Source: Candidatus Eiseniibacteriota bacterium (GTDB lineage: Bacteria; Eisenbacteria; RBG-16-71-46; JABDJR01). Taken from it: 64,000 nucleotides of DNA. The notes under the pieces were generated by a model. It made no database searches. It saw nothing but the letters and a program-made list of their open reading frames with translations, and had not been told where the DNA came from. Position 1 is the stretch's first letter, and each line of letters starts with the position of its first letter. Position numbers and translations under genes: made by a program. This document shows positions 2,442-44,407 of this stretch, one piece after another. The stretch covers positions 736,001 through 800,000 of the forward strand of contig CAVXKA010000001.1 in the NCBI GenBank assembly GCA_963762255.1. The letters run 5' to 3'.

Positions 2442-3446
2442 ATGAAACGCACCGGATACCTCATCGCGCTCCTGGTCGTGCTCGTCGTGGTCGTCCTGGC
2501 CGTTCTCGTCGCGCGCAAACCCCGCACGGGGGCGCCGTCGCAAGCGGCCATGCAATCGACCGCCCTCTATCGCGAGGCGGCCGGCTTCGTGTCTCCGGAC
2601 AGCCTCGGTCCCGCCTGGCCCGGCGAGGATGTCCTGCGCGCGGTGCGCGGCGAATGGCGCGCGCTCGGCTTCCGCGACTCGATGATCTGCGAAGAGCTGA
2701 CGCGAGCGGCGATGTATCCGGACGACGGGGAGCCCCTCATCGTGCCCAACGTGTCTCAAACCCCCACCGGATCGAGCGTGGAACTCACCGAGCGGCTCCG
2801 CTTCGGGGAACGCCTGCTCGCCCACCCGCGCTGGCGCATGGGATCGCTGCGCCACTTCCCGGTATTGGCAGCCACGCTTTCCTCGACCGAGAAGAGCGTG
2901 CTCGCCTATCTCTCGGGGCCCGGCCGCAAGCCGACGAAGCTCGACTCTCTGGCGATGGCCCTCGACCTTCCGCGAGAAGAGGTCGCGCCCGTGTTGACGA
3001 CCCTCCAGTCGGTCGGTTGGGTGCGCGCCGACGTCGCCGCGGATTCGACGCTCTACACGATCGCCGATCCTTCGATCGCGAAGGGGGGCGCGTTACAGTT
3101 TGTGGAGATCGCAGCGGGCGCGGGGAGGCCGATGGACATGGTGTCGATCGCGGCCGTGTTCGCCCGCACCTCGCCGACGCTCTTCGCGAGCCGGGTCGTG
3201 CTGCGCGGACCCTGCGCCGCCACCGGACGAACCGTCGTCATCGAAGTGGGCGCGGGCAAGCTCTTCCGAGGCCGCCCCGGCAGCGCGTGGGCCGCGGAGA
3301 TCCGGCCTCCCGGTCGCAGCTCCGGACTCTTCGTGTCCCAGCGAGCCTTCGAGCGGTGGCGGGCCGAACATCCCGACGTGCAGGTGGGCGCGCAGAGCAC
3401 CGTGCTCGATCTGTATCGAATCGAGCGAAGCGGCGTGAGCGAATAG
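2442..3446 (+). CDS. Membrane-anchored protein with wHTH and degenerate MerB (alkylmercury lyase)-like domain
   Basis: N-terminal TM (YLIALLVVLVVVVLAVLV), wHTH-like LAMALDLPREEVAPVLTTL, then GPCAATGRTVVIEV and LFVSQRAFERWRAEHP resembling MerB SHCAATGAPVSLTV and FFASVPTAEDWASKH. Confidence 0.6.
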   Translation: MKRTGYLIALLVVLVVVVLAVLVARKPRTGAPSQAAMQSTALYREAAGFVSPDSLGPAWPGEDVLRAVRGEWRALGFRDSMICEELTRAAMYPDDGEPLIVPNVSQTPTGSSVELTERLRFGERLLAHPRWRMGSLRHFPVLAATLSSTEKSVLAYLSGPGRKPTKLDSLAMALDLPREEVAPVLTTLQSVGWVRADVAADSTLYTIADPSIAKGGALQFVEIAAGAGRPMDMVSIAAVFARTSPTLFASRVVLRGPCAATGRTVVIEVGAGKLFRGRPGSAWAAEIRPPGRSSGLFVSQRAFERWRAEHPDVQVGAQSTVLDLYRIERSGVSE

Positions 3447-3507
3447 ACGGTTCCTCGGCGCTGCTGGGTCAGACCGCGTTTCCCTCGGCCGAAACCAGCC
3501 ATGGAAT

Positions 3508-3532
3508 TAACTCATTTATTTTGAATGAGTTA
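3508..3532. promoter_or_regulatory. AT-rich inverted repeat TAACTCATT-N7-AATGAGTTA (IHF-like sites or enhancer UAS)
   Basis: Perfect 9-bp arms about 160 bp upstream of a sigma54 promoter. The left arm extends to TAACTCATTTATT, one mismatch from IHF YAANNNNTTGATW. Confidence 0.5.
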
Positions 3533-3691
3533 GGGCCCTAAACACCCCCGCTTGCGGCCACCGGGGACGCCGGCACTCGTCGATTTCCCCAGGGCGGCGC
3601 CCGGGCGCCGCTGACGTATCCCGGGCCAGCCAGACATTTAACGTGTTACCGCACAATGGGTTGCAACTGGATCCGCTGCGCCGGAAACGCT

Positions 3692-3707
3692 TGGCACGAC
3701 CCCTGCT
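3692..3707 (+). promoter_or_regulatory. sigma54 (-24/-12) promoter
   Basis: TGGCACGACCCCTGCT is intergenic and has exact GG-N10-GC spacing. Predicted +1 is about 3716-3718. Confidence 0.75.
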
Positions 3708-3715
3708 CTTTACCC

Positions 3716-4018
3716 GGGCGAACGCCCTCGCAAGGGGATCACCGAAAGGTGAAGCGGTTCGCCCGTCGGAGCGGGGCTAGGAGCCAACCCTCTCCAGTCC
3801 AACTCCCCTCCTCGCCGGCTTTGACTTCGCACCGGCGGGCGGCCGATCCCCTGGAAGGCGCCAGACTTGGTGGCCGGTTGCAGTGACACTGTGTTCCCGG
3901 AAAGCGCCCCTGAGGTCTATGGGCCGGCCACCAGATCTTCGAAGCGCACGAGCGTTGCTGAGCGGGGCCCGGCAAGGGACCTGGGTGATTCCTCCTCCTC
4001 ACCCGGGTCCCTCTTTTT
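3716..4018 (+). ncRNA. Candidate ~300-nt structured sigma54-dependent ncRNA of unknown family
   Basis: Begins at the predicted +1 with stem GGGCGAAC/GTTCGCCC enclosing two GNRA-capped hairpins (GCAA, GAAA). Further stems CGCCGG/CCGGCG and TGGTGGCCGG/CCGGCCACCA. Ends at an intrinsic terminator. No credible ORF. Confidence 0.6.
3975..4018 (+). terminator. Intrinsic terminator with C-rich (anti-SD-like) loop
   Basis: 14-bp stem AGGGACCTGGGTGA/TCACCCGGGTCCCT (one G-U), loop TTCCTCCTCC, followed by CTTTTT. Confidence 0.8.
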
Positions 4019-4045
4019 GTGGGGCGGGAGGGGAGAGACCGCCGG

Positions 4046-4903
4046 CTAGACCTTCGGCTTCGCCGCCACTTCGTCGACCTCGATGATGCGGTCGAGGCGG
4101 AAGTCCCGATCCTCTTTGCGCAGGTGGCAGTACGCCCGCATGTTCATCCCCTTGATGTTCTTGGGGGTCACGCGCCGATACGTCTGGCCGCCGCTCCCGC
4201 GGTAGGTGATCTCGAGATCCATGTGCGTCTCGATCGCTCGCCGGATGCTCTCCACCACCAACTGAAAGCTGTTCTCCTCGCGCCCGTGCCCCCCGATCGA
4301 GAACTGGTACGAAGTGCGGTAGCCGGGAACGCGCGTAATGTCGTCCTGGCCGCGCTGGTGGTACTCGGCCAGGTAATGGAGCAGCACGCGTCCGGCCATG
4401 CGCGCATCGTCGAGCGCGCGGTGGGCGTGCGGACCTTCGATGCCCAGCCGGTTGGCAAGAACTCCGAGCGTGAACGGACCGGTGTCGTCCTGCGCCCGCG
4501 CCAACTCCAGGGTATCGAGCACGGGGTTCCCCACCTGATTGCGGCCCATCTTCTCGAGCTTGTACTGGAGGAACCCCATGTCGAACTCGGCGTTGTGGGC
4601 CACGATGATGGCATCGGAAAGGAGCGGCAGGAACTGATCCGCCAGATCCTCGAAGCGCGGCTGCCCCGCGAGCATCTCGGGTGTGATGCCGCTCACTTGC
4701 GCGGCGGCCGGATCGAGCGGCCGGCCCGGATCGACCAGCGCGCTGTACTCCTTGACGATCTCTCCGTCTTCGAACCGCGCCAACCCGATCTCGCAGATCT
4801 CGTCGCCGACAGCGGGATAGAGCCCCGTGGTCTCGAAATCGATGACCGCGAACGCGCGCGCCAGAAGAGGATTGGGCAACTCGCTGAACAGATCGAAGGA
4901 CAT
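4046..4903 (-). CDS. DEDDh 3'-5' exonuclease (DnaQ/epsilon-like) fused to C-terminal WYL domain
   Basis: ExoI IDFETTG, ExoII HNAEFD, ExoIII HRALDDA. WYL motif ITY..RRVTP..MRAYCHLRKEDRDFRLDRI. Start MSFDLF at 4903 follows an AAGGA SD. Confidence 0.88.
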   Translation of the reverse strand: MSFDLFSELPNPLLARAFAVIDFETTGLYPAVGDEICEIGLARFEDGEIVKEYSALVDPGRPLDPAAAQVSGITPEMLAGQPRFEDLADQFLPLLSDAIIVAHNAEFDMGFLQYKLEKMGRNQVGNPVLDTLELARAQDDTGPFTLGVLANRLGIEGPHAHRALDDARMAGRVLLHYLAEYHQRGQDDITRVPGYRTSYQFSIGGHGREENSFQLVVESIRRAIETHMDLEITYRGSGGQTYRRVTPKNIKGMNMRAYCHLRKEDRDFRLDRIIEVDEVAAKPKV

Positions 4904-43206: not shown

Positions 43207-43875
43207 TCAGTCGTCGAGATAGTAGCCGTCGAGCACGATCACCGTGAGGGCGTTCGGGTGTCGGTGATACCGCAAGTGCTGGTGGTATTCGGACACCGAC
43301 CAGAACTCCATGTCGCAGTATGGGTCGTAGAACACGAATCCCTCGGGCGGGGCGTCGCCGAGTTCCAGGCGCAGGGCGAGGCCACCGAGGTAGATGCCCA
43401 GCCCGGCGTGGAAGTAGAACGGGTCGTCATGCACGTAGATCCGTTGGACGTCGCGATACCAGGGACGGACGACGTAACGAGGCGGCGGGCAGGCGCGCAG
43501 GTCGCGATGGCGCACGACGACGCGTTGCCGGCGATCGTAACGGCCGTGGTCGCGATCGTTGTCGCGGTCACGGATGACGATGCGATCGCGGTCTCTGTCG
43601 CGGTCGTTGTCCCGGCCGCGCACGGAGCGGTCGTCTTCGCGGCCTCGAACCGCGCGGTCGTCGCGGCGGTCTTTGCTGCGGTCGTTACTGCGGACGGCCC
43701 GGTCGCTCTTGCGCGCGCGTTCCGGCTTCTTGACGGTGCGCTCCTGGCGTTGGTCATTTTTCCGGCTGCGGCTGTTGTCGGCAGCCTGCGCCGCAGTCGT
43801 GCCGACAGTGCCGGCCAGGACCGCGAGGGCAATAGCGGTGAGCGCGACGCGTTTCAATGAGCTGGGGGTTTTCAT
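43207..43875 (-). CDS. Secreted Arg/Asp-rich protein with C-terminal C2H2-like (D-C-H-H) finger
   Basis: Signal peptide MKTPSSLKRVALTAIALAVLAG..AQA, RD-rich repeats, DPYCDMEFWSVSEYHQHLRYH; GAGGAG SD. Confidence 0.7.
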   Translation of the reverse strand: MKTPSSLKRVALTAIALAVLAGTVGTTAAQAADNSRSRKNDQRQERTVKKPERARKSDRAVRSNDRSKDRRDDRAVRGREDDRSVRGRDNDRDRDRDRIVIRDRDNDRDHGRYDRRQRVVVRHRDLRACPPPRYVVRPWYRDVQRIYVHDDPFYFHAGLGIYLGGLALRLELGDAPPEGFVFYDPYCDMEFWSVSEYHQHLRYHRHPNALTVIVLDGYYLDD

Positions 43876-43967
43876 GGCTCTGTCTCCTCTTCCGGGGCGC
43901 GCTTTGGCCGATGTGCGTGCTTGCCGGGCTTCGCGCGCCGGCCGGTGATGCAACGCAGGGCGTATAG

Positions 43968-43983
43968 AGCAGGAGACGTGCCA
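43968..43983 (-). promoter_or_regulatory. sigma54 (-24/-12) promoter
   Basis: Minus strand TGGCACGTCTCCTGCT with GG-N10-GC spacing, about 90 bp upstream of ATG 43875. Confidence 0.75.
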
Positions 43984-43991
43984 GTGGGGCG

Positions 43992-44021
43992 TGCTCACCC
44001 GGGTGATCACCCGGGTGAGCA
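43992..44021. repeat. Perfect 30-bp palindrome built from two tandem 12-bp palindromes
   Basis: TGC-TCACCCGGGTGA-TCACCCGGGTGA-GCA. Confidence 0.9.
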
Positions 44022-44407
44022 GGGGAAGTCCTTGTTTTGGTTGGACCTATGGGAGGCGGGGTGACGACTTTACCCGGGGAAAGTGGAGGGCGCCGCAGGC
44101 CTCCTGGTGTGTCGCGAGGGGAACAGGGTGGGGCGAGGGAGATCGGCCATGGTCCCTCATGCTCGTCCGGGCCTTCACGCGTTTCCATTCCGAGGCGATC
44201 GTCGCGCCTGCCGTCGCACGGCGTCCCCATCGCGTTACACGGACCCCGCTCGCAGGCTAACACCCGAGGCTGTCATCGCGAATCACCGGAGACGCCGGTG
44301 ACCCGAGAGGGGGGCGGGCGCGGCTATACTGGGCAGGAAGACAGCCCTGAGCGGAGCGATTCGCGGGTCAATGGGGCGTTAGCGCCTGGATAGTTAGGAG
44401 GGCAACG

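Follow-up and report, generated by a model that had tools for sequence, protein, structure and literature searches.

A conserved, structured RNA gene with a predicted sigma54-type promoter in one family of Candidatus Eisenbacteria

The 64,000-nt stretch of DNA analysed here (the window; contig CAVXKA010000001.1 of assembly GCA_963762255.1, Candidatus Eiseniibacteriota bacterium) contains near its start what conservation and covarying helices indicate is a genuine gene for a conserved, structured non-coding RNA with a sigma54-type promoter (Table 1). The RNA is a lineage-specific family, new to Rfam, within a known kind of regulator. The role that we favour, at somewhat short of an even chance, is that of a trans-acting, chaperone-independent, sigma54-controlled small RNA (sRNA) that would base-pair with purine-rich ribosome-binding sites and occlude them. 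That transcription starts at 3717 and needs sigma54 in vivo, and that the RNA pairs with mRNA and represses it, are all steps that we infer. No description of this RNA was found in the literature searched, at the level of titles and listings. The matches listed for the name of the phylum, which we take to belong to the FCB group, were all ecology or genome surveys, and among them no description of RNA regulation in Candidatus Eisenbacteria was found.

Comparison with related genomes delimits the unit. The genome of the window is referred to as G000, the other genomes of its family (f1) as G001-G007, and two genera within f1 as g1 and g4. The interval 3480-4040 is present in a single copy in its own genome. 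BLAST against 40 relatives gave matches in four genomes, all of the same family, and these matches start at 3678-3692 and end at 4014-4034; that is, they run from the sigma54-like site to the U-run past the terminator hairpin, and the flanks beyond this promoter-terminator block are unalignable among the relatives. A covariance model built from five sequences (262 positions, terminator left out) picked up two divergent homologs, in G003 (51 bits) and G002 (32 bits), and the RNA is present in seven of the eight genomes of f1. A preliminary description of this DNA, made from its letters alone, had proposed a homolog search with covariation analysis as a check; the outcome is a unit conserved in seven f1 genomes, with covarying helices.

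Outside f1 no homolog was found. The two sister-family genomes gave no match, and in a 151-genome class sample the only one beyond f1 was a chance hit (G080), a weak partial covariance-model match that was discarded because it lies in coding-looking sequence and has no promoter. A second, broader covariance model, built from the seven sequences and used on a 151-genome phylum sample, was positive in the window's own genome and in five of the six of f1, and in none of the 145 genomes from 16 other families. A scan of species genomes with the pattern CCCTCTCCAGTCCNNCTCC returned 71 loci, of which nhmmer supported four, all in relatives already known, the other 67 being chance. The JGI metagenome scan with a 23-base, three-part pattern returned five loci, all chance, and no further homologs. 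Following synteny through the exonuclease gene downstream of the RNA revealed no close ortholog in the sister family; the eighth f1 genome, G005, has that gene, and the RNA was not found in its 440 contigs.

Table 1. Features of the RNA gene and its upstream region, in window coordinates
Feature	Position	Strand	Sequence or remark
Conserved upstream block	3465-3500	.	TGGGKCAGR, ~15 nt, GGYYGAWWYCMRCC; conserved by eye in 6 genomes
AT-rich inverted repeat	3508-3532	.	Arms TAACTCATT/AATGAGTTA; read from sequence
Proximal dyad at -53	3639-3648	.	TAACGTGTTA
Proximal dyad at -38	3654-3663	.	CAATGGGTTG
Sigma54-type -24/-12 promoter	3692-3707	+	TGGCACGACCCCTGCT; one mismatch to TGGCAC-N5-TTGCW
Predicted non-coding RNA, ~302 nt	3717-4018	+	Start inferred from promoter spacing, end from terminator
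Variable 5' domain	3726-3751	+	Hairpins P2 (3726-3737, loop GCAA) and P3 (3740-3751, loop GAAA)
Helix H1, 5' strand	3755-3767	+	CGG-U-UCGCCCGUC; pairs with 3834-3845
Purine-rich strand	3768-3783	+	GGAGCGGGGCUAGGAG; partner 3817-3830 (H2') or, in an alternative pairing, part of the C-tract
C/U-rich tract, 32 nt	3784-3815	+	CCAACCCUCUCCAGUCCAACUCCCCUCCUCGC; apical loop of H1 + H2'
H2', 3' strand	3817-3830	+	Sequence-variable
Helix H1, 3' strand	3834-3845	+	GGCGGGCGGCCG
Hairpin H5	3864-3937	+	17 stem pairs, including a 10-bp stem
H5 apex	3891-3915	+	Invariant GUGUUCCC and GCNCCCCU
Small hairpin H6	3952-3968	+	GCGUUGC...GCGGGGC; 6 pairs
Intrinsic terminator	3976-4018	+	13-bp stem, 10-nt loop UUCCUCCUCC (3989-3998), U-run 4012-4018

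The sigma54 promoter proposed in the preliminary description withstood comparison: the sequence at 3692-3707 matches, and the element TGGCAY-NN-CYCCTGC is kept in all seven homologs. The own genome encodes sigma54 (rpoN; Sigma54_DBD, 216 bits) and has 23 strong matches to Sigma54_activat, the domain of enhancer-binding activators, with the closest activator gene 20 kb from the RNA. Strict TGGCAY-N5-YTGC sites are rare, only 37 in the 4.14-Mb genome, and a simple sigma70 promoter scan found nothing. The promoter, its spacing and conservation, and the sigma54 and activators of the host point to a sigma54-dependent transcription unit. Another strict sigma54-like site, at G000:C2:1338576, is located 54 nt before a prepilin-like gene (N-terminal ...GFTLIELMIV...); prepilin genes are classic sigma54 targets. 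In the window itself, a sigma54-like site TGGCACGTCTCCTGCT (43983-43968, minus strand; window 43875-44030) is preceded by a perfect 28-bp palindrome, GCTCACCCGGGTGATCACCCGGGTGAGC, and downstream of it a gene whose ATG is at 43875 encodes an R/D-repeat-rich protein that looks secreted.

The promoter is accompanied by short dyads. A proximal 10-bp dyad, YAAC-N2-GTTR, is found at -37 to -54 in all seven homologs, and the same dyad stands at -37 to -40 or -52/-53 before 12 of the 37 strict sigma54-like sites, where about 0.7 would be expected by chance. Its interpretation as the specific site of the activator was abandoned, since 11 other sigma54-like sites are preceded by it at an equal distance; such recurrence at a fixed distance makes a shared architectural site more likely. 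The proximal dyads probably bind an IHF-type, DNA-bending protein, their core, CAA-N4-TTR, resembling what we take to be the IHF consensus, and the pattern suggests a fixed-distance architectural (IHF-like) site at the sigma54 promoters of this lineage. The dyad also occurs distally, at -169 to -190 from the promoter, in all six of the other genomes (6/7 in all). The AT-rich inverted repeat previously reported at 3508-3532, seen here with its 9-bp arms and 7-nt spacer, has outer TAAC...GTTA half-sites 17 nt apart, and by its placement occupies the position of the relatives' distal 10-bp dyad. The conserved upstream block lies before the distal dyad and past the stop codon (3444-3446) of a 344-aa gene. 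Between the distal and proximal elements, ~75-130 bp upstream of the promoter, there is a GC-rich palindrome that is different in each genome (3593-3616 in the window: GCGGCGCC-CGG-GCGCCGC); it could be an activator site or the terminator of the upstream gene.

The preliminary description saw no credible open reading frame (ORF) in the unit, and the homologs agree. ORFs of 45-87 codons can be drawn over the RNA in the window, as a small-protein gene would have it, but those drawable in the seven homologs differ in frame and position and none is shared, 1-2-nt indels are scattered throughout the alignment, and the two longest window ORFs have no Pfam match. A conserved stretch of DNA without any RNA function is countered by compensatory changes, which show selection on RNA pairing. 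Either explanation strikes us as barely credible. The strand is also settled, in the direction that G-U pairs had suggested from the window alone: the four supported helices contain 53 G-U cells and 3 A-C cells, so that a minus-strand transcript would be full of mismatches and the + strand is fixed. Read as its reverse complement, the locus would have GGAGGAGGA as part of a hairpin loop, with several GGA motifs along the tract, which recalls a CsrB/RsmZ-like RNA with GGA motifs in its loops. Against such a minus-strand RNA, whose probability we consider negligible, stand the 53 G-U cells that would turn into A-C mismatches (3 the other way), the promoter and U-run terminator that lie on the + strand in all seven homologs, and a minus-strand fold z-score of only -0.90. 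A CsrA sponge of the CsrB/RsmZ type was rejected on the G-U and A-C counts and because a search of the 93.6%-complete genome turned up no CsrA gene.

Known families do not account for the RNA, in line with the earlier statement that it could not be matched by eye to tmRNA, RNase P, SRP, 6S or common riboswitches. A search of the whole 64-kb window against Rfam 15 gave no match at the gathering score. With permissive filters on 3400-4100, the best match was to CC3664, an sRNA of Caulobacter (23.6 bits, where the cut-off is 60; E = 0.11 for 701 nt); the aligned part, 3869-4009, consists of a hairpin and then a terminator hairpin whose loop is C-rich. This was treated as noise because the match is below threshold and limited to generic GC-rich stems. 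An identity with 6S RNA was ruled out: the 6S model matches at other loci of the same genome (87.3 and 49.6 bits), and the present RNA is multi-branched rather than a long rod with a central bubble. The weaker of these 6S-like matches (G000:C1:103393-103588; cut-off 46.4) lies ~26 nt downstream of the strict sigma54-like site TGGCATCACCCCTGCA and has no ORF after it; the locus may encode a sigma54-driven 6S-like RNA.

The folding energy of the window sequence is unremarkable (z = -1.73, with 6 of 100 shuffles folding equally well), and the structural evidence is consequently that of conservation and covariation. In the seven-sequence alignment, 23 of the 78 modelled pairs change on both sides, compared with 7.4 in shuffles (0/500 reach 23) and 3-7 in slid controls. 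Since this alignment was fitted to the model and leans towards it, the pairing of cognate and non-cognate strands, taken from before and after the C-tract, was compared free of any alignment. Cognate strands paired at -56.1 kcal/mol in G003 and at -42.2 kcal/mol in G002, as against -25 to -47 and -25 to -36 kcal/mol, respectively, for non-cognate combinations.

Helix H1 is seen in all five sub-region minimum-free-energy structures; it has 13 pairs, six of them changed on both sides, and 92% of its cells are paired. In genus g4 the purine-rich strand next to it pairs over as many as 15 consecutive positions with the variable strand that follows the C-tract. In all seven sequences H1 and H2' make up an interrupted helix of ~25 bp that ends right at the C-tract, which makes the 32-36-nt C/U-rich segment an apical loop. 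The conserved fold, as predicted from these comparisons, is a long interrupted helix, H1, that presents the C-tract as a loop and that compensatory changes maintain in the two most divergent genomes. The 10-bp stem TGGTGGCCGG/CCGGCCACCA that had been picked out in the window is present as part of the longer helix H5, in which 9 of the 17 pairs change on both sides and 91.5% of cells are paired. Five of the six pairs of H6 never vary, so that covariation is uninformative for this hairpin, and it is missing or altered in G003 and G002. The terminator reported with the loop TTCCTCCTCC is also confirmed (hairpin 3976-4011, followed by the U-run), and three pairs of its stem covary; a simple terminator scan had missed it because its loop exceeds the 8 nt allowed. 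Two other candidate elements were set aside: an outer helix proposed by RNAalifold (columns 9-15 with 163-169), which is poorly supported at 70.5% paired, and a GGAG/CUCC hairpin in which 1 of 13 pairs changes on both sides.

The three-way junction that the preliminary description placed at the 5' end holds only in part. The hairpins P2 and P3, with their GCAA and GAAA loops, exist in the window, and P3 contains one covarying pair (GC/AU/CG). As the conserved architecture of the family, the junction is not upheld. Its closing helix P1 (GGCGAA/TTCGCC) overlaps H1, TTCGCC being needed by both; G003 and G002 each have one unrelated hairpin in place of the entire 5' domain; and the loops depart from the GNRA pattern in G007 (GCAG) and in P3 of G006. 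H1 is the predicted minimum in the three g4 genomes (G004, G006 and G007); the junction takes that place in genus g1 alone (in the window and in G001), where it is ahead by 3-7 kcal/mol. In this model the 5' domain is variable and P1 is at most an alternative conformer in genus g1, where the competition between P1 and H1 could make the display of the tract switchable.

The CU-rich segments resembling the anti-Shine-Dalgarno (anti-SD) sequence, to which the preliminary description had drawn attention, are the most conserved and, by prediction, the most accessible parts of the RNA. The long C-rich tract noted there was located at 3784-3815, and its 3' end, CCUCCUCGC (3807-3815), is invariant in all seven homologs. 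The same is true of CUCCUCC in the terminator loop and of GUGUUCCC and CNCCCCU at the H5 apex (GUGUUCCC..CCCCU), and the stems around these invariant C-rich motifs vary. The predicted probability of being unpaired is 0.99-1.0 in the terminator loop, 0.40-0.85 in the C-rich tract and 0.36-0.75 in the H5 loop, the mean for the whole molecule being 0.33-0.41. The purine-rich strand able to pair with the tract is variable among the homologs and missing in G002; as this partner is not kept there, the tract is conserved for more than intramolecular pairing. In the window, a G-rich run complementary to the C-tract, GGGGCGGGAGGGGAGAG, is located at 4021-4038, directly past the terminator; it is not conserved in the relatives.

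The translation signals of the host give these segments an obvious potential partner. The 3' end of its own 16S rRNA, GGATCACCTCCTT (...CACCTCCTT), carries the canonical anti-SD core CCUCC. Upstream of ATGs, GGAGG reaches a peak of 76 at -15 to -9 over a background of ~7, an enrichment of about 10-fold. Neither Hfq nor ProQ was found in the 93.6%-complete genome, which encodes four small RRM_1 proteins. In the mechanism that we propose, sigma54 RNA polymerase, an enhancer-binding activator and a DNA-bending protein bound ~40-55 bp upstream would switch the RNA on under some signal. The folded RNA would hold the C/U-rich tract as the loop of the long interrupted helix and display further C-rich loops at the H5 apex and in the terminator. 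These segments, which contain CCUCC, the core of the anti-SD of the organism's own 16S rRNA, would pair with GGAGG-type ribosome-binding sites or other G-rich leaders of target mRNAs, and this pairing would block 30S binding and lower translation, mRNA stability or both. Because G-C-rich pairing is strong, we propose that Hfq would not be needed.

Two kinds of characterized sRNA offer precedents for this design: LhrC and its relatives in mode of action, LhrC being about one third the length of the present RNA, and 6C, a small RNA that has its own Rfam family. According to PMC4132741, LhrC does not need Hfq and blocks an SD through three CU-rich sites that are redundant with one another and lie in a loop, in a single-stranded stretch and in the loop of the terminator; UCCC motifs act likewise in RNAIII, RsaE, SprD and FsrA. 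The redundant C/U-rich motifs in hairpin loop, single strand and terminator loop given for LhrC, RsaE, RoxS, RNAIII, SprD and FsrA (PMC4132741) are a feature shared with the present RNA. The differences are that there is no sequence or Rfam relationship, that the motif here is CCUCC/CUCCUCC rather than UCCC, that the promoter here is of the sigma54 type, and that those sRNAs come from Firmicutes/Listeria, whereas the present one belongs to a high-GC uncultured phylum. The 6C sRNA of Actinobacteria, which are high-GC and described in PMC6486639 as without Hfq or ProQ, uses C-rich loops to bind G-rich ribosome-binding sites by G-C pairing without a chaperone. A high-GC host in which no Hfq or ProQ was found, and C-rich loops, are thus common to both, but the C-rich loops of 6C are the hairpin loops L2 and L3 (PMC6486639), and here a 32-36-nt loop is carried on a ~25-bp stem. 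Phylum and promoter type also differ, and the Rfam model of 6C had no match here. The present RNA carries motifs of the CCUCC type in its large loop, in an internal hairpin and in its terminator loop; this matches the design of LhrC, the UCCC sRNAs and 6C, and it is for this reason that an occluding sRNA is favoured.

Sigma54-dependent sRNAs with a -24/-12 promoter are known, namely Qrr, GlmY, CrcZ/CrcY and NrsZ. Like these, the present RNA has a stand-alone sRNA gene with such a promoter and upstream protein-binding sites, an architecture that implies control by one enhancer-binding activator and its signal. There is no homology to any of them, and the motifs are of another type: the known sigma54 sRNAs use Hfq-dependent seeds, sibling mimicry (GlmY decoys for GlmZ) or A-rich Hfq/Crc-binding motifs, in contrast to the anti-SD-like CU motifs found here.

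Several results weigh against ribosome-binding-site occlusion. Targets were sought by k-mer complementarity, by running RNAduplex on candidate starts and by comparing one set of orthologs, with crude gene starts. Within those limits, sites complementary to the C-tract, the terminator loop and the H5 loop were not clearly commoner than for reversed or shuffled queries; for 11-mers of the C-tract there were 109 complementary sites, compared with 92 for the reversed and 26-81 for shuffled queries. The genome-wide duplex ranking was dominated by G-rich coding sequence, and the best-looking start, that of a gene for a FadL/TodX outer-membrane protein (porin), keeps only an ordinary AAGGAG in five relatives. 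The pairing with ribosome-binding sites put forward in the preliminary description was accordingly not borne out by the scans: there was no enrichment over controls, and the best-looking candidate is not conserved. In addition, CCUCC would match most SDs, which makes the basis of specificity hard to see, and the C-tract of the window and of G001 is partly paired by prediction (unpaired 0.40-0.43), alternative folds competing with its display. Finally, typical seed-type sRNAs are smaller and less elaborate than this RNA of 300 nt with its four C-rich sites, and this fits a protein sponge too.

Such a sponge or decoy, in which the four C/U-rich sites would titrate a pyrimidine-preferring RNA-binding protein (a small RRM protein, S1, a cold-shock protein or Rho), is unlikely in our estimation, yet it is the alternative to which we give the most weight. 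Rho loading sites are C-rich and G-poor, and the logic of a sponge has precedents in the sigma54/CbrB-driven CrcZ and, with another motif, in CsrB/RsmZ. The similar motifs repeated on separate loops of a fairly large RNA are consistent with it, as are the sigma54 promoter, which CrcZ shares, the four RRM_1 proteins of the genome and the failure of the target scans to turn up a conserved mRNA target; the conserved H5 apex (GUGUUCCC..GCNCCCCUGAGG) also resembles a specific recognition site more than it does a seed. On the other hand, the gene neighbourhood points to no protein partner, ~4 sites are few beside the greater number of copies and sharper motif that we take to be usual in known sponges, and the motif is the anti-SD core, for which there is an obvious RNA partner. 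A broader version, in which the RNA would differ from an ordinary sRNA with few targets, is a multivalent, sigma54-switched decoy made of copies of the anti-SD core, acting either as a general SD sponge on strong-SD mRNAs or as a sponge for Rho, S1 or RRM proteins; we hold this to be rather improbable.

It is also possible, at a lower probability still, that the C-rich loops make tertiary or intermolecular contacts outside mRNA control, in an RNA associated with the ribosome or RNA polymerase, a scaffold or a ribozyme. A length of ~300 nt, two long covarying helices and the invariant internal-loop sequences of H5 would suit such an RNA, and restriction to one lineage is seen in many orphan structured RNAs. 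A sigma54 promoter, however, implies conditional rather than housekeeping expression, the 5' domain is freely replaced, 6S RNA is encoded elsewhere in the genome, and no Rfam family matches. Occlusion of ribosome-binding sites by the displayed C-rich loops remains the reading that we prefer.

The neighbourhood of the RNA bears on whether it acts in cis. Upstream on the same strand is the 344-aa gene (ATG at 2443), whose product has a probable signal or membrane N-terminus. Divergent from this gene is an operon at 3-2347 on the minus strand that encodes an ECF sigma factor (1772-2347), an anti-sigma factor (1102-1626) and two LTXXQ (Spy/CpxP-like) proteins and is envelope-stress-like; a long + strand ORF at 1340-2407 was discarded as the shadow of the ECF sigma gene. 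Downstream and convergent is a DEDDh exonuclease-WYL gene. Gene order around the RNA is kept in most genomes. In genus g4 (G004, G006 and G007) a 7-9-kb operon that includes genes for a ~1040-aa and two ~390-480-aa proteins lies between the RNA and the exonuclease-WYL gene; from the protein sizes alone, our guess is that it is RND-efflux-like. The RNA directly follows the 344-aa membrane-protein gene on the same strand in 5/7 genomes and is convergent with the exonuclease gene in 4/7, an arrangement that would be expected if it were a 3' extension of the former or interfered with the latter, and in the window the G-rich stretch past the terminator could be a cis partner of the C-tract. We consider such a cis or antisense element very improbable: the RNA has its own promoter and its own terminator, the efflux-like operon separates it from the exonuclease gene in g4, the 344-aa gene is 7.5 kb away in G004 and absent from the G002 locus, and the G-rich stretch is not conserved. 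Since the neighbours vary in this way, the RNA is an independent unit, which agrees with the stand-alone, structured non-coding unit on the + strand that was first described.

Twenty public runs, six of which are RNA libraries, contain parts of the stretch; they belong to 16 studies and come from soil, groundwater, sediment, wetland and peat. The contigs of four metatranscriptomes were compared with it; such contigs reveal neither strand nor transcript ends nor expression level, and they may include carried-over DNA. With that reservation, contigs cover 3729-4120 in one run, and in one run a contig covers 3661-3860, promoter included. Two metatranscriptome runs contain multi-gene contigs of a 90-94% relative.

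With its promoter, helices and conserved loops, the RNA is a well-defined family suitable for Rfam, and its upstream region provides evidence that this lineage uses sigma54 promoters accompanied by an architectural site at a fixed distance. The unit is short and complete in itself, which makes it a ready-made sigma54-controlled reporter for an environmental signal. If the RNA were a general SD sponge, initiation on strong-SD mRNAs would be throttled whenever the activator fires; if it were a factor sponge, it would represent, in an uncultured lineage where RRM proteins may replace Hfq, a circuit of the CrcZ/CsrB type whose motif and partner are new. As an occluding sRNA, it would be a test case for the strategy of setting C-rich loops against Shine-Dalgarno sequences in Hfq-less, high-GC bacteria outside the Gram-positives.

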